From Bacteroidales bacterium (lineage in GTDB: Bacteria > Bacteroidota > Bacteroidia > Bacteroidales > PUMT01): 64,000 nt of DNA. This document shows, one piece after another, positions 1 to 38,164 of the stretch. The position numbers and the translations under genes are program-made. The notes under the pieces were generated by a model, which was given only the letters and a program-made list of their open reading frames with translations, ran no database searches and was not told where the DNA came from. Numbering within the stretch: the stretch's first letter is position 1; every line of letters starts with the position of its first letter. The stretch spans positions 457 through 64,456 of the forward strand of contig JAWODJ010000015.1 of assembly GCA_046483315.1 (NCBI GenBank), in the 5' to 3' direction.

Positions 1-1179
1 GTATTCAGGAAACGGGTTATTTTCATCAAAGGGATATAAGGTATTTTGATCTTCAATTACTATTCCCTGTTCATTAAGACTGCCATCAGCATTGGTTGCC
101 TTACTAAGATCGAGGCCCATATACCTGGCGATAAACGGATATACAGCCATTCGTTTATTGTAGTCATATCCGTGACCTTCATCAGGAAGATGAATATTGC
201 CAACAAGTCCGGGGCTCCCAAACAACTCATAGATATATTTAATATAGGGGTATTCCACATCAGGAGTATTGCTTGTCCAGTCGCCGCCGACAGATACAAG
301 TAACTGCGGCCGGGGAGCAGCAAGAGCCGCAATCTCAACGTTATTGGTCTGAAATCCGGGAGACCTGTGAACAGGCATGCCGCTTTCACAGATGCAGCCG
401 CCGAAAAAATGAGCCGAAACCATCACAACAGGTACGGAGACTGAAATACGCTCATCCACTGCTGCAAGCAGAAAAGTCTGGGTTCCTCCGCCTGAAGCAC
501 CGGTAACACCGATATTATCAGGGTCGGCGCCTGTATGGATTAAAAAGTCAACTGCCCTGATGCTATTCCATAACTGGAGCTTAAGCACTTCGGGATGTTC
601 ATGTTCCCAGCCATATTCGGCAAGTTGTCCGTAACCGACCATATCCCACGCAAAAACAACGGCTCCCATCCGGGCCATGGAGGCAAAACGCTTTTGGGCA
701 TCAGCCCTGTAACGGCCATAATCACCCTGCTCGTTCCAGTGGCCGTGCGGACTTAAAATTCCTGGCATTTTTTCGTTTTTATCTTCAGGAAAATAAAGAC
801 TTCCGGTGACATAGACCCCTGGAAGACTTTCAAAAGCAACGTTTTGCACCTTGTAACCGTCAAAAGATCTTATTTCCCCAAACAAAGGATTCAGCCGGCA
901 TTTCTCAGGAAAAGATTCCAGTCCCGCTCCTTTCAGAATCTGGTTCCTGACCTTTTCAGCCCTGGACTCCCAATCACTCAATGTTGATATCTCAGATTGT
1001 ATACTATCCAAAAATGCTTTCCCTTCATCTTCGGTAAAATGATGCCCTACACATAACATTGATTCAGATGAATTATCAGTTTCCTGGATGTTGCAGCAAT
1101 TAAAAAGACCCGGGAGTACAAGTCCGCATGCAATGATAACAAGAGATGAAGGCAAAAACCGGAATTTATTATTTTTCAT
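1..1179 (-). CDS. alpha/beta-fold hydrolase (acetyl-xylan-esterase-like) lipoprotein; C-terminus lies beyond the window edge
   Basis: Absent from the ORF track because it has no stop in the window. Hand translation from ATG (1179..1177) stays open to base 1 (393 codons). It reads MKNNKFRFLPSSLVIIACGL (lipobox-like IIAC) and later NIGVTGASGGGTQTFLLAAVDERISVSVP (GxSxG nucleophile elbow). The core block is paralogous to 1201..3408. Confidence 0.75.
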   Translation of the reverse strand, partial: MKNNKFRFLPSSLVIIACGLVLPGLFNCCNIQETDNSSESMLCVGHHFTEDEGKAFLDSIQSEISTLSDWESRAEKVRNQILKGAGLESFPEKCRLNPLFGEIRSFDGYKVQNVAFESLPGVYVTGSLYFPEDKNEKMPGILSPHGHWNEQGDYGRYRADAQKRFASMARMGAVVFAWDMVGYGQLAEYGWEHEHPEVLKLQLWNSIRAVDFLIHTGADPDNIGVTGASGGGTQTFLLAAVDERISVSVPVVMVSAHFFGGCICESGMPVHRSPGFQTNNVEIAALAAPRPQLLVSVGGDWTSNTPDVEYPYIKYIYELFGSPGLVGNIHLPDEGHGYDYNKRMAVYPFIARYMGLDLSKATNADGSLNEQGIVIEDQNTLYPFDENNPFPEY

Positions 1180-31565: not shown

Positions 31566-32273
31566 ATGTGCAGAAGAAATAAATATTGTGTTCCCGAGCC
31601 AGTGCTGTTCAACTGCCTGAAACACCATGCCGGTTACGTTGCCGGATTCATCAGTAATTATCCCGCTCCCGGGTTAACCTCAGCCGGGCATCCAGATAAA
31701 GAAAACAATACAGGTAAAGACACGAGTCACCCTGGTCAGGCTGATCATGAAAGTTTAACGGGCCTTCATGGGCATACAGGATTGTCGGAAGCTGGCAAAA
31801 AACTCCAGCAGCAACTCACCGCAACAGGAAAATCGCAAACTGACTTTTATACGGGAAGGCTTACCCCCCTAAAAATCGCCCGGGAGATAAAAAGTTTCCT
31901 TGAAGGCAAAAAACTGCTGGAAAAAGCTTCATATCTTCAATGGCTGGACCGCCCGGGATCATTATACAGGATAACGGAAATAAGTGACGGATCGGTTTGG
32001 GTACTTCTGCCGGGAAAGACTGAAGGCCGCCATGTTCATATCCATCCTGCCAGATATTCACCGTTAACCCTGAGAATAAGATCCGAAACACTTAAAACCG
32101 CAATTGCGGTTTTATGGTACTGCAACCTCTGCGGCAGGGATCATAATGATCTGAAAGTGGTGAATGAGGCACGCGAAAAACTGCTTGGCCTTTCCCCCGT
32201 CAGGGAGGTGAAAGCGCAACGCGGAATTGGTAAAATAATAAGGATACTGACACAGATGGCTCTTTCAAAGTAA
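31566..32273 (+). CDS. hypothetical protein
   Basis: 235 aa ORF, convergent with the Trx-TrxR gene. The C-terminal half looks globular and I recognise no family. Confidence 0.4.
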   Translation: MCRRNKYCVPEPVLFNCLKHHAGYVAGFISNYPAPGLTSAGHPDKENNTGKDTSHPGQADHESLTGLHGHTGLSEAGKKLQQQLTATGKSQTDFYTGRLTPLKIAREIKSFLEGKKLLEKASYLQWLDRPGSLYRITEISDGSVWVLLPGKTEGRHVHIHPARYSPLTLRIRSETLKTAIAVLWYCNLCGRDHNDLKVVNEAREKLLGLSPVREVKAQRGIGKIIRILTQMALSK

Positions 32274-32383: not shown

Positions 32384-33652
32384 TTACTCCAGCTCTTTTG
32401 TAATGGCAATGGCCGCTATTGTTCCATCTGCAACCGCAGTGGTGATCTGGCGGTATTTCTTGCTGTTGATATCGCCAACCGAATAGACACCCTCAATGCT
32501 TGTCTGCATATCCTCATTGGCTTTAATATAGCCCCACCGATCCACTTCCAGCTTATCACTGATCATTGAAAGGTTGGGTATCAGCCCTATAAAAACAAAA
32601 ATGCCATCGGTAACAAGAACTTTGCGCTTACCTGTTTTAAGCTCCTCGACCTCCACTTCCATCTTATCTCCTTTCCGGGCGAATGAACGAGGCTCATGTT
32701 CAAAAAGAAAAGAAATTTTGGGATCAGCAAGAGCTTTTTCCTGTGCCTCTTTATTTGCCTGTAATTTATCAAACTGGTGTACCAATGTGATCTTAGAGGC
32801 AAATTTGGAAATAAAGGCCGACTCTTCAATAGCTGAATTACCACCGCCAATTACAATAACCTCCTTGTTATCGAAATATTTGGCATCGCATGTTGCACAA
32901 TAGGAGATACCGCTTCCCATGAATTCCTGCTCACCCGGAATATTCAGCTTCCGGGGCGAGGTGCCTGTTGCAATAACTATCCTTTTTGCCCTTATCGTTT
33001 CATAATCATCTATCATGATCTCTTTTCTTATAAGGTCAACCCTGGTAACATCAACGGCCACCTTATAGATGGTCCCGCATCTTTTTGTCTGTTCCGACAT
33101 GTTGTGCGACAACATATATCCAGGCTGAGGCTCAATAAATCCGGGATAATTCGACACCATGTGGGTAGTTGCCACGTATCCGCCGGGAAGGGCGACATCA
33201 ATAAGGGTTGTATCAATTTTTGCCTGGCACAGGTACAATCCCGCCGTCAGTCCCCCGGGACCAGCTCCCAGTATCGCCACTTCAGTGTCCGTAATAACTG
33301 GTTTCACTCCCTCCATGATACTGTCTGTCTTCTCCTTCCCTGCCAGATGGCGGATCTCCCTAACTATTTCCGAACGTTTAATGCCACCTGAGAGCCTCTG
33401 GCAAACCTCCCGGCCATCTTCATAAAAAAGAAGGGTAGGCGACGACCTTACTCCCAGCTTTTCGGCAAGCTCCCTGTTTCCCTGCCTGAATACCTTAACA
33501 AAGGTCAGCTCGTTTCCGAACAGTTGCTCCAGGCTCTCAAGCTTTGGTGCGAGAGCATCGCAGGGTGGGCATTCCGTAGAATAAAAATCTACCAGCACCG
33601 GTCCACGGCCACTGATAACATCATTGAATTCATTTGCAGTAATCTCTTGCAT
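32384..33652 (-). CDS. thioredoxin / thioredoxin-reductase fusion protein (N-terminal Trx, C-terminal low-Mr TrxR)
   Basis: 422 aa. The Trx fold has VLVDFYSTECPPCDALAP. The TrxR half has the FAD motif ILGAGPGGLTAG, the redox dithiol YCATCDA and a second dinucleotide motif VIGGGNSAIEE followed by HQFDKLQA. Confidence 0.85.
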   Translation of the reverse strand: MQEITANEFNDVISGRGPVLVDFYSTECPPCDALAPKLESLEQLFGNELTFVKVFRQGNRELAEKLGVRSSPTLLFYEDGREVCQRLSGGIKRSEIVREIRHLAGKEKTDSIMEGVKPVITDTEVAILGAGPGGLTAGLYLCQAKIDTTLIDVALPGGYVATTHMVSNYPGFIEPQPGYMLSHNMSEQTKRCGTIYKVAVDVTRVDLIRKEIMIDDYETIRAKRIVIATGTSPRKLNIPGEQEFMGSGISYCATCDAKYFDNKEVIVIGGGNSAIEESAFISKFASKITLVHQFDKLQANKEAQEKALADPKISFLFEHEPRSFARKGDKMEVEVEELKTGKRKVLVTDGIFVFIGLIPNLSMISDKLEVDRWGYIKANEDMQTSIEGVYSVGDINSKKYRQITTAVADGTIAAIAITKELE

Positions 33653-33748
33653 GGCTTAAAAAGATTTATTATTACATTAACTTTTTCTCTCCGGAGCGGA
33701 CAAACGGGTGTCAAAAGCCGATGGTACGCCGAATCAGAAACTATATAT

Positions 33749-35062
33749 CTATTTATTTACCTTATCCGGGAAATAAGCAGCAATCCCCAGCTCCAGCAGC
33801 TCTTTTACCGGCCTGCAATCCGGACTGTGTCTGCTTCCGTTCCGGTTCTTTGAAACGGCCGCACAGCCTCCGCCGCAAAGCAAATTCAGGTTACAGTTAC
33901 TGCACTCACTTATTGAAAGTATATCCCGGTCATTCCACTCCTCTATCTTCTCTTCATACATCACCCTTTCGGGGAAAAATCTCCCAAGCTCCTCTCCCTT
34001 CTTCCCTGCGGTTGCAGTGCATGCATAAATACTGCCTGTATAGTCGAAAGCCCATTCCGTTTTTGTGCCGGGACAGGCATCAAAGAGTGGTGCGGGCAGT
34101 TCACCGGTTTCATACAGTGCCCTGGATACAGAAAAGGATGGTTTGTGAAACTCAAGAATGTGAGGATACTCTTTCATTAACCTGTAAAGTTCAGTATACA
34201 TCTCAATACGCGAAAATAGCCTGCCTCTTTTTACCTGGCAATCATGCAGCTCATAATTCCTTCCAAGTTGTGTACTGAACAGCGGTGATCCGGTCCATCC
34301 CCTGTCAATGGAGAAACGCGCCAGTGCGGGTATATTGTCAATGTTTTCCCTGTCTGCCACAACCCTTAGATTGACCGGGATATTATTCTCCAGCAACAGG
34401 TCCACCCCTTCTGTAATCCTGTCAAAGGTACCTTCACCGCTTTTCAGGGTACGACGGCGGTTATGAACATCACGGGTTCCGTCAAGAGTGACCTGGATTT
34501 CCCTGATTTGTGCCTGCCTGAACAGGCCGATATACTCAGAAAGGTGATATCCGTTGGTAACAACTGCGATACCGGTTTTCATCTCATTTGCACGTTCAAT
34601 GATGTAACCTACGGTGTTCATATGGCTTCTGCCGGGAAGCAGGGGTTCGCCCCCGAAAAGGGTTATATACCTGCGCCGGTTGACAAATTCCGTTTCGATA
34701 TGTTTGAAAAAGGCATCAATAACCTCCTTATCAAGTCCGGCTCCTTTAACATCGTAATCGCCCTGGTAACAATAAGAGCAGTTAAAATTGCAACTGTAGG
34801 TGGGAACAAAAAACAGCTGAACCTCATCTGTTTCCCTCTCATCCAGGAACTGAAGGTAGGCTTTTCTGAACAGGGACTTTTCAGCTTCGGGATCAACAAT
34901 GTATCCACGTCCGGCAAGGTCAGGATGGTTCAGGTTTCCTTCCTGCATGCCCTGCCAGGTATTCCTGTCAATAATATCGGCACTTCCGTAAAGGGAGTTA
35001 AGGATAAAGTACTCATCCGAATCTCTTATCTCTGAGATAATATTAAACCTGGATAATTCCAT
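33749..35062 (-). CDS. radical SAM / SPASM-domain enzyme, peptide-maturase-like
   Basis: 437 aa. The CxxxCxxC motif is in PTYSCNFNCSYCYQ, about 90 residues from the N-terminus. The full SPASM pattern is present: C-x12-G-x4-C (CPGTKTEWAFDYTGSIYAC), then CSNCNLNLLCGGGC (C-x2-C-x5-C-x3-C), then a distal Cys (SPDC). Confidence 0.85.
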   Translation of the reverse strand: MELSRFNIISEIRDSDEYFILNSLYGSADIIDRNTWQGMQEGNLNHPDLAGRGYIVDPEAEKSLFRKAYLQFLDERETDEVQLFFVPTYSCNFNCSYCYQGDYDVKGAGLDKEVIDAFFKHIETEFVNRRRYITLFGGEPLLPGRSHMNTVGYIIERANEMKTGIAVVTNGYHLSEYIGLFRQAQIREIQVTLDGTRDVHNRRRTLKSGEGTFDRITEGVDLLLENNIPVNLRVVADRENIDNIPALARFSIDRGWTGSPLFSTQLGRNYELHDCQVKRGRLFSRIEMYTELYRLMKEYPHILEFHKPSFSVSRALYETGELPAPLFDACPGTKTEWAFDYTGSIYACTATAGKKGEELGRFFPERVMYEEKIEEWNDRDILSISECSNCNLNLLCGGGCAAVSKNRNGSRHSPDCRPVKELLELGIAAYFPDKVNK

Positions 35063-35063
35063 G

Positions 35064-35075
35064 CTTTCGCGAAAG
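35064..35075. promoter_or_regulatory. perfect 12-bp palindrome CTTTCGCGAAAG abutting the radical SAM start codon
   Basis: Read directly from the sequence. It is separated by 1 nt from the ATG at 35062..35060. Confidence 0.3.
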
Positions 35076-35225
35076 GATATGAACGGGGACTTTTATCCGG
35101 GGAATGACAATTTTACTCTTTTACTTACGGACGTTTATGCCGGTAACCCGGGTTTATCCAAAAAGTTATAACAACCTTGCAGTGTCCACTTCCCGGTATT
35201 TAACTGACTAATCCGGTTTTATTTC

Positions 35226-35324
35226 TCAGTCATGACACCCGGCCACGATCTTTGATTTCTTTGCACAGCATTGTGCCTGCACAGACTTCCTCTCTTCTGT
35301 ATTCTTTGTAGTCAGACTCTTCAT
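35226..35324 (-). CDS. candidate precursor peptide (32 aa, 3 Cys)
   Basis: Below the ORF-track size cut-off. Hand translation gives MKSLTTKNTEERKSVQAQCCAKKSKIVAGCHD followed by a stop. It is co-directional with, and 163 nt upstream of, the radical SAM gene and is preceded by a TAnnTTTG box. Confidence 0.35.
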   Translation of the reverse strand: MKSLTTKNTEERKSVQAQCCAKKSKIVAGCHD

Positions 35325-35369
35325 CGTAAATATTTTAAACTGTATTCAACTTATAGCTTTTATTATCTG

Positions 35370-35377
35370 CAAAGATA
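35370..35377 (-). promoter_or_regulatory. Bacteroidota -7 promoter box TATCTTTG
   Basis: Exact TAnnTTTG match on the minus strand, 46 nt upstream of the small-ORF ATG (35324). Confidence 0.35.
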
Positions 35378-35471: not shown

Positions 35472-35503
35472 GAAAAAAACAGATAAAAAGCCGGTAGCCG
35501 GCT
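35472..35503 (-). terminator. intrinsic terminator of the TonB-dependent receptor gene
   Basis: On the minus strand, AGCCGG-CTA-CCGGCT is followed by TTTTATCTGTTTTTTT, located 23 nt after the stop at 35526. Confidence 0.6.
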
Positions 35504-35525: not shown

Positions 35526-37751
35526 CTAAAAATTTCCGGTAAGGCGCATGCTGAAATTACGGTGAGGCCTTATATCACCCGGGCGGCCCATATATTCGGT
35601 ATTGAGAACGTTCTTTACCACCATTGACATCCTTAGTTTTTCATTTATGGCATAACCAATGTGCGGGTCAACCAGAAGATGCCCCCTGACGGATTCATTC
35701 CAGTAATCATAAAAACCGGGGAGGATCGTTTCCCTGGTAAGTTCATTCAGAAAAACATCATCGATATTCAGTATTGGTGAACCGGCCTGCAGACTGAACC
35801 CAAAATCATATCTCCCGTATTCACTTCCCAGGCTAAGTGTAACCGAATGCTTGCGCCTGTATTTAAGGTATACATCGCCTCCTGCAGCAGTTCGGGAGTT
35901 AACCTCCACAGGGTATATGAATACATATCCGCCGGTGACTGTATTGTTGAACCTGCCCGCCGGGCCGGACAGGGCAAATTCAATTTCTGTACCATACACC
36001 CTCGAATGCTCAACATTGGTGGCCATGAATCTGGGAGGGAAGTAAAAAAGATACTCAATCATATCTTTATTACGCGAGTGAAACACGGCAATATCAAGCT
36101 GCCCGTTCAGCCGTCCGGTTAGTATCCCCTGCTTGATTCCCAGTTCAGAGCTCCAGCCTGATTCGGGGCGGATATCCGGGTTCGGAACTATTCGCACCGA
36201 ACCCATGGTTGTTGCTGCATGTTTTTCAGCAATGGAGGGATAACGGTATCCCTGTCCGAAAGATGCCCTTAAAAAAGTGTAATCCAGCAACCTGTAATTT
36301 ACTCCTGCCCGGAAAAGAGGAACAAGCCTGTCCCACAGCCCGTCAAGTGTATTATGCTCAATCCGTATACCGGCAACCACCTTCAGTCTTTCGACAGGAG
36401 CAATTTCAGCCTGGGTATAGCCAGCAAGGTTAAAAGCATGATGATCACCGTACAGGGCCGAGTATATACGGCTGTAGTTTTCCATTATACCGAGATTAAT
36501 ATCAACCAGCCGTGACAAAGTGTACCTAAACTGATACTCTGCCAGAAAAGAGAGTGCACGGCTGTCGTTTTGCCCCGCTTCGGGAAACCTGTTTCCTGAA
36601 GATTGAAGCCTTGTCCTCAGGTCATGCATGTAACGGGTTCCACTTTTCATGCTGATGTATGGATCAATAGTAATAAGGCTTCCGTTTAACTTATTTGCAG
36701 TGGACTCATCCTGCTTCAAAGCACCTGACCAGGCATTCTCCCACAATATGAAATCTCTCTTCCCGGTGATACCGGCATTCATGCTAACACCGTATGAAAG
36801 ACCTTCAAACCGTTCATCATCATGCTTAAGACTCAAATTGAGCCTGCCCAGTTTCTCATCGTTAAGTTTCCTGTAGCCATTGTCATTAAGAAGATGAAGG
36901 GCAACACTCATACCTGTGTTACCGTATCTTTGCATATGAGAAAAAGATGCACTCTGCCAGGTTCTTGGTGAATCCCACCATACCCATTCCCCCCGGCCCG
37001 GCCGGCCAAAAACTCCTGCCTCTGAAAAAAATCTTGTAACAGGCTCACTGCCTGCTTCTGCAGTCCTGAAATTAATTACACCATTGAGGGCGGAAGATCC
37101 GTACAAAACCGATGATGCACCTTTTATAATCTCTATCTGCGAGATATTCTCAAGAGGAAGGAACTGCCATTTTATATTTCCGGCGTCAGCCGATAAAACC
37201 GGCAATCCGTCAATAAGGGCAATAACCCTGCTTCCCGCACCGTAACTGAAGCCACTCCCTCCCCTTACAGAAGCCTGTCCGTCCAGCACTTCTATTCCGG
37301 GTGTTTTATTAATCAGTTCGGTTGGGTCAGTGATATGAGAGGAGGAAATCATTCCCGGCTTTATAATGTTTACCGAGACCGTAAGTTCAGAAACTCTTTG
37401 TTCAACCTTACCCGCACTTATTACAATCTGGTCTATCTCCGCAGCATCATATTCGAGTCCCACATCCAGAATAACAGTATCGCCCGGCGGCACATGGACC
37501 GTACGTGTTACTGAGGCATACCCCACATACCTGAATGTGATACTTATTCTCCCGGTGCTGGTATTTGCCGTATAAAACCCCGTCCTGTCAGTTACAGTAC
37601 CCTGACCCTTCCCGTAAAGAACACTGGCTGAAGGTAAAGGCTCCATCGTTTGCCGGTCAAAAACCCTTCCCTTAACAATACCCTGGCCATAGGAGGTCTT
37701 ACAGGCAAGAAACGAAAAAAGAAAAAGGACCGCAAGCAGCCGGTTGATCAT
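35526..37751 (-). CDS. TonB-dependent receptor with CarboxypepD_reg N-terminal domain
   Basis: 741 aa. It has a signal peptide, IVKGRVFDRQTMEPLPSASV (carboxypeptidase-regulatory-like), a plug, a long beta-barrel and a terminal aromatic residue (..RLTGNF). Confidence 0.85.
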   Translation of the reverse strand: MINRLLAVLFLFSFLACKTSYGQGIVKGRVFDRQTMEPLPSASVLYGKGQGTVTDRTGFYTANTSTGRISITFRYVGYASVTRTVHVPPGDTVILDVGLEYDAAEIDQIVISAGKVEQRVSELTVSVNIIKPGMISSSHITDPTELINKTPGIEVLDGQASVRGGSGFSYGAGSRVIALIDGLPVLSADAGNIKWQFLPLENISQIEIIKGASSVLYGSSALNGVINFRTAEAGSEPVTRFFSEAGVFGRPGRGEWVWWDSPRTWQSASFSHMQRYGNTGMSVALHLLNDNGYRKLNDEKLGRLNLSLKHDDERFEGLSYGVSMNAGITGKRDFILWENAWSGALKQDESTANKLNGSLITIDPYISMKSGTRYMHDLRTRLQSSGNRFPEAGQNDSRALSFLAEYQFRYTLSRLVDINLGIMENYSRIYSALYGDHHAFNLAGYTQAEIAPVERLKVVAGIRIEHNTLDGLWDRLVPLFRAGVNYRLLDYTFLRASFGQGYRYPSIAEKHAATTMGSVRIVPNPDIRPESGWSSELGIKQGILTGRLNGQLDIAVFHSRNKDMIEYLFYFPPRFMATNVEHSRVYGTEIEFALSGPAGRFNNTVTGGYVFIYPVEVNSRTAAGGDVYLKYRRKHSVTLSLGSEYGRYDFGFSLQAGSPILNIDDVFLNELTRETILPGFYDYWNESVRGHLLVDPHIGYAINEKLRMSMVVKNVLNTEYMGRPGDIRPHRNFSMRLTGNF

Positions 37752-38164
37752 TTTGCTTTGAATGTCATCCGGATATTAAATTCTTCCTCAGGATTAAGGG
37801 GATTTGGAAAATCAGTTGTGATCTTCAGTGAAGAAGATGTCAGTTCAGCAATTTTAGTTGTAAGTGGAAAATCCAGGGCATCTGTAATAATAACAAGCTC
37901 CGTCTCTTCCTTTTCAAATCTCCATGTACCGGTATAATCACCGAAATAACCGGTACCATCGGCATTGAACTTCACATCACCGTTGAAATCACCCAGCAGT
38001 TCCCCTGATCCACTGGCATCAGAACCGTTAACAAGCAAACTGTCTGATACCCAAACAGGCGTTGTCAGCATGTCAAATCTTGCAGATACCTCATCTTCAT
38101 CCTTATCACACGATACAATGATAAGGGCAGACAAAAACACTATAAACAAGCCCAGTTGCTTCAT
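37748..38164 (-). CDS. small lipocalin-like lipoprotein
   Basis: 138 aa with the lipobox LIIVSC. It overlaps the TonB receptor start by 4 bp (ATGA). Its composition is beta-rich. Confidence 0.55.
   Translation of the reverse strand: MKQLGLFIVFLSALIIVSCDKDEDEVSARFDMLTTPVWVSDSLLVNGSDASGSGELLGDFNGDVKFNADGTGYFGDYTGTWRFEKEETELVIITDALDFPLTTKIAELTSSSLKITTDFPNPLNPEEEFNIRMTFKAK

Follow-up and report, generated by a model that had tools for sequence, protein, structure and literature searches.

What does a 32-codon open reading frame (ORF) with three cysteines do when it lies just ahead of the genes of a radical S-adenosylmethionine (rSAM) enzyme and of a thioredoxin (Trx)-thioredoxin reductase (TrxR) fusion? 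We addressed this question at a locus of a Bacteroidales bacterium (contig JAWODJ010000015.1), within a stretch of 64,000 nucleotides that is referred to here as the window. An original prediction, made from the letters of the window, had grouped these three genes into a compact candidate operon for a ribosomally made and post-translationally modified peptide (RiPP). We observed that the window carries one copy of a widespread four-gene cassette, comprising an ArsM-like S-adenosylmethionine methyltransferase (MT), a peptide of 31–32 residues, an rSAM/SPASM enzyme bearing a RiPP recognition element (RRE) and the Trx-TrxR fusion (Table 1). All three co-directional minus-strand ORFs were found, as was the convergent gene downstream of them. 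Their linkage held; the size of the unit did not, the MT gene being a fourth member. We propose, tentatively and with slightly less than even confidence, that the cassette encodes a RiPP-like pathway acting on peptide thiols and on a thiophilic metalloid, probably arsenic, in which the Trx-TrxR fusion recycles disulfides.

Table 1. Features of the cassette and of its immediate surroundings (positions in the window)
Feature	Position	Strand	Basis or remark
Convergent downstream gene	31566..32273		
Trx-TrxR fusion, 422 aa	32384..33652	-	Pfam Thioredoxin and Pyr_redox_2
CATC of the TrxR module	32888..32899	-	within the fusion
ECPPC of the Trx domain	33560..33571	-	within the fusion
rSAM/SPASM enzyme, 437 aa	33749..35062	-	Pfam Radical_SAM, Fer4_12
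SPASM Cys region of the rSAM enzyme	33815..34075	-	motif
CxxxCxxC of the rSAM enzyme	34769..34792	-	C91/C95/C98
RRE-like domain of the rSAM enzyme, aa 1-80	34823..35062	-	AlphaFold2 model
Precursor-like peptide, 32 codons	35226..35324	-	MKSLTTKNTEERKSVQAQCCAKKSKIVAGCHD
Invariant core of the peptide	35229..35276	-	AQCCAKKSKIVAGCHD, after Lys-rich leader starting MKSL
-7 box	35370..35377	-	TATCTTTG, read from sequence
Terminator-like hairpin and T-run	35489..35503	-	pattern scan; after the TonB receptor gene
TonB-dependent receptor, 741 aa	35526..37751	-	cluster C15; Pfam Plug, TonB barrel, CarboxypepD_reg
Lipoprotein-like ORF, 138 aa	37748..38164	-	cluster C14; no Pfam match
ArsM-like SAM methyltransferase, 207 aa	38242..38865	-	cluster C1; fourth conserved cassette member

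The linkage was established from both ends of the cassette. In a protein search of 1.84 billion representatives, the clade of the window collapsed to one representative (537 bits), with graded relatives below it. Scanning one genome per GTDB species, we found 486 relatives of the rSAM enzyme and retrieved 80 loci, or 81 with the window. Many of these are contigs of metagenome-assembled genomes (MAGs), for which single taxonomic labels may be wrong; a locus was considered evaluable for the peptide when it had at least 400 nucleotides of sequence upstream. Anchored on the rSAM gene, the peptide was present in 76 of 77 evaluable loci, the MT in 66 of 68 (by ORF clustering; the cluster, of ~210 residues, has members in 72 of all 81 loci) and the fusion, downstream, in 59 of 65. 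All four parts were found at 49 of the 56 loci with sufficient flank on both sides. In the reciprocal test, independent metagenome contigs were entered through the fusion; here the rSAM gene accompanied it at 50 of 52 evaluable loci, the peptide core at 43 of 46, and the MT at 35 of 38. The co-occurrence of the rSAM enzyme with the fusion, which the original prediction had proposed to check, was thus observed from either anchor. Pairwise identities of the MT, the rSAM enzyme and the fusion were also correlated over 63 loci (r = 0.61–0.64), a level reached by none of 500 label permutations, and we count this correlated divergence as probable co-evolution of the three enzymes.

The linkage is tight, reciprocal and old. 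The cassette occurs in at least four phyla and at least 486 species-level genomes. Going by record titles, its hosts are chiefly Bacteroidota; Ignavibacteria (complete chromosomes among them), Spirochaetota and a single MAG each of Deltaproteobacteria and Syntrophomonadaceae are also represented. At least one host, Carboxylicivirga caseinilyticus A049 (locus L070), has been cultured. In most loci the MT stop codon precedes the peptide start by a median of 28 nucleotides, so that the ancestral operon was MT-peptide-rSAM-TrxR. A reordered TrxR-MT-peptide-rSAM cluster (L169), whose rSAM enzyme is 45% identical to that of the window, retains the peptide core as AQCCAKNSKIVSGCHD. One Ignavibacteriales MAG (L066) carried the rSAM and fusion genes alone, without MT or peptide and with an MFS transporter gene directly upstream; an overlooked peptide was considered for this locus and rejected, and it is a genuine partial cassette.

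Next, we consider the peptide itself. Exactly one ORF of the form AQCCAKxSxxxxGCHD-stop, always on the rSAM strand, was found at 77 of the 81 loci, and in the evaluable syntenic loci it was uninterrupted and kept its three cysteines, a check that the original prediction had proposed. The core has eleven invariant residues (A, Q, C, C, A, K, S, G, C, H and D), whose codons vary by synonymous changes only. The entropy summed over the 17 core codons was 3.8, 5.7 and 22.4 at codon positions 1, 2 and 3, respectively. Free synonymous variation at invariant residues indicates a constraint at the level of translation, and not an RNA element or a chance ORF. Judged by this codon pattern, the mini-ORF is a genuine gene under strong purifying selection. 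The N-terminal half is variable, consists of Lys to 32%, and starts with MKSL in 55 of 74 loci; the median length is 31 residues, with three Cys in 31–32 residues. A variable Lys-rich half followed by an invariant end is, by this comparison of the loci, a leader-plus-core layout. Wherever the gene is called, its database label is 'hypothetical protein', and Pfam and NCBIfam hold no model for the peptide, nor any that names the rSAM clade or the cassette. The peptide, which the original prediction had not recognised as a member of named rSAM-target families, shows no six-Cys pattern, no Cys-every-fifth repeat and no CxxxD repeat. A search for selenocysteine versions of the peptide returned none.

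A short ORF directly upstream of the rSAM gene, with consecutive Cys codons, could also be a cis-regulatory leader (an upstream ORF or attenuator), one that controls the downstream genes in response to Cys-tRNA or thiol status and is no substrate at all. This explanation is extremely unlikely. What is conserved is the amino acid sequence, non-Cys residues and C-terminus included, while synonymous changes occur freely. The distance between the peptide stop and the rSAM start has a median of 75 nucleotides and ranges from 2 to >1000 nucleotides, and at L169 there is no gap at all, the end of the peptide gene and the rSAM start sharing 8 nucleotides. Compared with shuffled sequence, the spacer between peptide and rSAM genes showed no better folding (z = +1.68). 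A predicted peptide-recognition domain on the rSAM enzyme, described below, also argues against a purely regulatory role.

Variants of the peptide were seen at several loci. The leaders of L035, L043, L065 and L079 contain an additional CC or CGC upstream of the AQCCAK core, which suggests that more thiol pairs are tolerated or useful. At L174, a contig of 69% G+C, the cassette is present and the peptide, MKSLIKKIKPTPQAQNACCAPKADEKVAQCCAKVSKAVAGCHD, at about positions 770..970, has a duplicated CC unit (ACCAPK...AQCCAK). A protein of 724 residues from this locus (P0423) was considered as an independent MT-rSAM fusion and rejected, as an intact peptide gene lies in another frame within its apparent linker; given this gene in another frame of 69%-G+C DNA, the merger is probably a read-through gene call.

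The rSAM enzyme has the architecture of a peptide maturase. It matched PF04055 (E = 2e-19), and its cluster motif begins about 90 residues into the protein, as predicted, with the three Cys kept in 81 of 81 orthologs. The complete SPASM Cys pattern that had been claimed was also found: C330-x12-G-x4-C348, C387xxC390x5C396x3C400 and C416 are each kept in 80–81 of the 81 orthologs, and C275 is an eighth Cys conserved to the same extent. The Pfam SPASM model (PF13186) did not match the protein at E<0.1, and the basis of the SPASM call is therefore the motif, together with full-length alignments with CteB and anSME, both SPASM enzymes. The N-terminal extension had been proposed to be a recognition element. 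The PqqD model PF05402 did not match the enzyme; in the AlphaFold2 model (mean predicted local distance difference test score, pLDDT, 83), residues 7–76 form a predicted beta3-alpha3 unit (pLDDT ~89), with strands at 7–11, 18–22 and 27–31 and helices at 33–40, 47–51 and 58–76. This RRE-like fold, together with the full-length match to CteB, supports the proposal. Foldseek placed full-length CteB chains on top (template modelling score, TM, 0.70; identity 17–18%), followed by anSME, ChlB and SuiB, and in a PDB sequence search CteB, the SCIFF thioether synthase, was the best match.

The nearest NCBIfam hidden Markov models (HMMs) are those of RiPP maturases: CefB (NF038107; 155 bits, cutoff 600), TIGR04463 (134 bits, cutoff 525), Clo7bot (128 bits, cutoff 600) and PapB (NF047865; 108 bits, cutoff 340). 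SCIFF (TIGR03974) scored 79.7 bits (cutoff 425). As all these scores are far under the cutoffs, the enzyme belongs to no named family. The possibility that it groups with enzymes acting on a different kind of substrate was not borne out, as the nearest named relatives, CefB, TIGR04463, Clo7bot and PapB, are all RiPP maturases. No ArsS or ArsL model was among its 25 best NCBIfam matches, all 25 being SPASM peptide maturases or related enzymes.

The system shares with CteB/SCIFF and PapB/freyrasin an N-terminal RRE, an rSAM core, a SPASM domain with Cys for two auxiliary Fe-S clusters and a Cys-containing precursor next door. In CteB-type enzymes the RRE binds the leader and a Cys thiolate is crosslinked to a carbon radical. 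It differs from them in the low HMM scores and the low identity to CteB, and in its precursor, which has three Cys and a single terminal C-x-D instead of six Cys in ~45 residues or CxxxD/E repeats. The CteB and PapB systems are also without the ArsM-like MT and the Trx-TrxR fusion, which are obligatory partners here. From CefA/CefB it is set apart by the missing Cys-every-fifth repeat and by the sub-cutoff score of NF038107. These likenesses raise the explanation of a conventional thioether RiPP, in which the rSAM enzyme crosslinks Cys, the MT tailors S, N or O, the fusion keeps thiols reduced, and no metalloid takes part. Its closest relatives being CteB-, PapB-, CefB- and TIGR04463-type maturases, the leader-core layout, a C-x-D end that recalls the Cys-Asp thioethers of PapB, and an MT gene immediately upstream of the peptide at the median distance given above all fit this explanation, which we regard as possible but rather unlikely. 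Against it, a conserved protease or exporter was not found with the cassette, and a core that is invariant across phyla is unlike most secreted RiPPs.

The MT is ArsM-like by sequence and by predicted fold. It matched the NCBIfam arsenite methyltransferase NF008823 with 181 bits (cutoff 263), the match starting at profile position 59. CrArsM, human AS3MT and CmArsM were best in a PDB sequence search, and the top 13 Foldseek matches of the MT model were all ArsM or AS3MT (TMq 0.75–0.81). Normalised to the ArsM target, TM was 0.49–0.56, and the central MT domain alone is present. Six cysteines, C17, C18, C21, C36, C109 (SNCVIN) and C159 (ECWAG), are kept in 68–72 of the 72 orthologs. C109 corresponds to C174 of CmArsM and C159 (ECxxGA) to C224, and by alignment coordinates C21 lies at the C72 position. 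The C44 region of CmArsM is absent; the MT has a flexible CCxxC at its N-terminus, and C17/C18 may substitute for C44. The protein has in common with ArsM/AS3MT a Rossmann MT core, the cysteines of SNCVIN and ECxxGA and a probable C72 equivalent, whereas ArsM has three domains and C44, and the MT described here consists of the central domain, lies outside an ars operon and is always found with the peptide and the rSAM enzyme. A conventional thioether pathway gives no reason for the retention of metalloid and redox Cys of ArsM in an ordinary peptide methyltransferase.

ArsM binds As(III) through a Cys pair and prefers As(III) that is delivered on three thiols, and its disulfide cascade is re-reduced by thioredoxin after every methyl transfer (PMC6138428). 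This biochemistry fits a cassette that also contains a Cys-bearing peptide and a Trx-TrxR fusion, and the need of ArsM/AS3MT for re-reduction by thioredoxin matches the linked fusion (PMC6138428). The original prediction had cast the fusion as a helper of the peptide, which would keep its thiols reduced, deliver electrons or process a disulfide. This role is still plausible; that of a reductant for an ArsM-type disulfide cascade is at least equally so (PMC6138428).

That the third gene encodes a Trx/TrxR fusion was confirmed by its Pfam domains and by CPPC and CATC motifs that are invariant in 70 of 70 orthologs. Besides CATC, its redox motif, the TrxR module contains those for FAD and for pyrophosphate. 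The fusion scored 304.9 bits against TIGR01292 (cutoff 343.45) and 199.5 bits against AhpF (cutoff 502.9). AhpF is the best full-length NCBIfam match in architecture, as it has the same order of an N-terminal Trx fold (CxxC) followed by a low-molecular-weight TrxR (CxxC). By analogy, this order implies that electrons are relayed internally, from flavin to one dithiol and on to the next. The fusion has one Trx fold where AhpF has two. It further differs from AhpF and TrxR in scoring under both cutoffs, in its ECPPC Trx motif and in HQFDKLQA (residues ~291–300), which stands in place of the NADPH 2'-phosphate motif HRRDxLRA, as placed by alignment to the D. radiodurans TrxR, and is conserved in 70 orthologs; AhpC is not conserved near it. 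TrxRs without the HRRDxxRA motif take NADH or other donors (PMC5627308), and the conserved replacement here therefore suggests NADH or a different electron donor. Among the six evaluable loci without the fusion, three have a free thioredoxin between MT and peptide, one has a frameshifted fusion and one has a remnant only. Free-standing thioredoxins in fusion-less loci suggest that the thioredoxin is under selection. Stand-alone thioredoxins between MT and peptide were seen at L012, L013 and L074, which lack a downstream fusion, at L041, which keeps it, and at L071, whose contig stops just past the rSAM gene.

From the observed gene set, with its conservation and linkage, its domains and its catalytic residues, we infer which chemical steps take place, in what order and on which metalloid, as follows. 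The Lys-rich MKSL leader would dock onto the N-terminal RRE of the rSAM enzyme. The rSAM/SPASM enzyme would make a 5'-deoxyadenosyl radical, take a hydrogen from AQCCAKxSxxxxGCHD and forge a covalent link; the most cautious assumption is a Cys thioether, which could join Cys30 and the C-terminal Asp. A thiophilic metalloid, most likely As(III), may be carried by the vicinal Cys pair, alone or together with the third Cys (Cys30), and would be passed from the peptide to the ArsM-type MT or held for it. The fusion would re-reduce disulfides of the MT and of the peptide, with electrons probably from NADH or another donor and not from NADPH. The product would remain intracellular, since the cassette is without a protease or exporter. 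Three-thiolate As(III) sites with a recurring CC-xn-C arrangement occur in ArsD (C12, C13 and C18) and in AfArsR (C95, C96 and C102). The CC-x9-C of the peptide resembles these triads and could serve similarly; they sit in folded, unmodified proteins, whereas the motif described here belongs to a 31-residue peptide coupled to an rSAM enzyme.

In a more radical version, the product would be a covalent arseno-peptide: As(III) would be chelated by the CC pair, a peptide radical would form a C-As bond, the MT would methylate the arsenic and the Trx-TrxR fusion would recycle the disulfides. We consider this version improbable. The addition of the carbon radicals of the rSAM enzymes ArsL and ArsS to As(III) is established (PMC13598754; see also PMC8552651). 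If true, the arseno-peptide would be the first 'arseno-RiPP'. The cassette shares the genetic coupling of rSAM and ArsM genes with the ArsL/ArsM (arsinothricin) and ArsS/ArsM (arsenosugar) systems; it differs from them in that the rSAM enzyme is an RRE-bearing SPASM maturase and in that a ribosomal peptide is added.

Relatives of the rSAM enzyme outside the clade of the window bring the arsenic connection closer. Proteins of ~790 residues (P0283 and P0402–P0408) are true fusions of an rSAM/SPASM enzyme with an ArsM-like MT; the rSAM part is 35% identical to that of the window, and the MT half, at 40% identity to the MT of the window, retains YGCGSP, SNCALN and HCVSGA. Upstream of these fused genes, and of their unfused relatives, a small ORF encodes conserved vicinal Cys, as ..VESCCNYDITGQSG..LVLPPMTHIQDMPR or ..IEQCCNYEIR.. 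'CCNY' peptides of this kind (..E[STQ]CCNY..) were seen at L161–L164, L167 and L170–L172, together with full-length or fused ArsM. The best model for the ArsM proteins of this CCNY clade is that of the arsinothricin ArsM (298–308 bits, cutoff 500). Their neighbours include AioA (1262 bits, cutoff 359), AioB (183 bits, cutoff 96) and the arsinothricin-resistance acetyltransferase ArsN1 family B (242 bits, cutoff 210), as well as an ArsN2-like GNAT protein (117 bits, cutoff 125) and a Trx-type ArsC-like protein (143 bits, cutoff 174), both under the cutoff. PiT-like or MFS transporters, a MIP channel, an FAD oxidoreductase and an A-T didomain also occur there.

ArsN1-type acetyltransferases are shared by this clade with organoarsenical clusters, and the CCNY loci look like an undescribed, putatively peptide-templated cluster for organoarsenical biosynthesis. 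In each of two related rSAM clades, then, a CC-containing peptide is paired with an ArsM-type enzyme; for one clade the setting is explicitly arsenic-related. Fusions of related rSAM enzymes to ArsM amid AioAB, ArsN1 and ArsC-like genes are not what a metalloid-free thioether pathway would lead one to expect. Under the covalent arseno-peptide model, the CCNY clade, with ArsN1 for self-resistance, would use a peptide template to reach an antibiotic resembling arsinothricin.

Several observations weigh against a metalloid pathway in the clade of the window. Its link to arsenic is one of homology and kinship only. As the rSAM enzymes of the arsenic-linked clade are just 31–35% identical, the function may have diverged. 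The MT is truncated compared with ArsM, lacking the N- and C-terminal domains, and falls under the HMM cutoff (181 against 263). When 268 ORFs of the flanks were surveyed with Pfam, arsenic-resistance families were absent from the frequent neighbours, and tblastn with ArsC, ArsN1, ArsN2, AioA, AioB, PiT, MIP and FAD oxidoreductase queries returned nothing in the window and 160 own-clade loci (1.46 Mb). The ArsN, ArsC and transporter genes of organoarsenical clusters are thus not found in this clade, which also fits a conventional thioether RiPP. Metalloid binding leaves the eight non-Cys invariant residues of the core unaccounted for, and a metalloid-carrier model gives the rSAM enzyme no specified task. 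Lastly, the accessory genes suggest general thiol, sulfur or envelope redox, and not specifically arsenic.

The flanks differ in content from locus to locus. These accessories recur in them as a secreted thioredoxin (20 loci), DUF6132 (20 loci), DUF1847 (18 loci), an SQR-like flavoprotein and DUF302, together with regulators of the Crp, MarR or NtrC type. A Marinilabiliales-type set (L008, L010, L020, L025, L027, L036, L051, L061, L067 and others) travels with the cassette and consists of the secreted Trx, DUF6132, DUF1847, DUF302, the SQR-like flavoprotein, a membrane 4Fe-4S protein and a Crp regulator. DUF6132 is a small Cys-rich membrane protein, and DUF1847 is also Cys-rich. No recurring peptidase, protease or exporter was found in the flanks of the cassette.

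Redox proteins as accessories, an apparently intracellular and exporter-free pathway and a disulfide reductase of its own, a flavoprotein whose nucleotide motif is atypical, are also what one would expect if the peptide gave rise to a redox cofactor or served as a dedicated thiol carrier. The modified peptide, or a piece of it, would then alternate between dithiol and disulfide, with the fusion as its reductase and the MT capping or tuning it. A C-terminal core that is invariant across phyla likewise resembles MftA and PqqA. Like mycofactocin and PQQ, the system has a small peptide whose C-terminal core is invariant, an RRE-dependent rSAM/SPASM enzyme and an intracellular look. The mycofactocin and PQQ pathways have a separate RRE protein (MftB or PqqD), a C-terminal Gly-Val-Tyr or a Glu/Tyr motif in the peptide, a linked peptidase and client dehydrogenases. 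In contrast to mycofactocin, the cassette has a fused RRE, a GCHD C-terminus and no conserved peptidase or dehydrogenase in its flanks, and neither the ORF clusters nor the Pfam census of the flanks revealed a client dehydrogenase or oxidoreductase family that travels with it. A redox cofactor would also leave the ArsM-type Cys, the ArsM fusions and the arsenic context of the sister clades unexplained. We therefore regard this explanation as highly doubtful, and retain the metalloid pathway as a tentative reading.

No description of the cassette was found in the databases or in the literature, the latter searched in full text and with literal motif strings in a library largely without subscription journals. 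If the metalloid model holds, the cassette would join radical-SAM RiPP maturation with microbial arsenic or metalloid methylation, fields that have yet to meet, and would offer a testable account of the handling or use of thiophilic metalloids by some strict anaerobes. It would also define a new precursor-peptide family with a 16-residue core invariant across at least four phyla, give a dedicated client to an atypical Trx-TrxR fusion without the NADPH motif, and make the clade with ArsN1 and AioAB neighbours a candidate for a peptide-templated pathway to an organoarsenical antibiotic. Read conservatively, this is an rSAM/SPASM RiPP system with an unprecedented obligatory partnership of an ArsM-like MT and a Trx-TrxR fusion, and still a large unnamed RiPP family, in at least 486 species-level genomes, with a strictly conserved and unusual enzyme set.

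Two further relatives of the rSAM enzyme (P0256 and P0265, 42–43% identity) are fused at the C-terminus to a Cys-rich DUF5714, which matched the NCBIfam model 'metal-binding double selenoprotein MbdU' with 128 bits. Similarity between DUF5714 and the accessory DUF1847 was undetectable.

Finally, the spacing of the genes in the window is a local peculiarity. The lipoprotein and TonB receptor genes (35526..38164) that separate the MT from the peptide are confined to the window and its five closest relatives (L003–L007). A terminator after the receptor gene and a -7 box ahead of the mini-ORF had been taken to delimit the unit. Both elements are there; the boundary they suggest is a product of this lineage-specific insertion, which accounts for a terminator and a separate -7 box at this place. 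The folding energy of the hairpin is unexceptional. Scans of the window with Rfam and for tRNAs were empty, and a sigma-70 promoter scan gave 12 sites against 12.2 expected. The Bacteroidetes -7 promoter consensus is TAnnTTTG, which the box in the window fits. Such a box lies within 120 nucleotides upstream of the peptide at 8 of 74 loci, which include the window and three of the relatives with the insertion (L003–L005).

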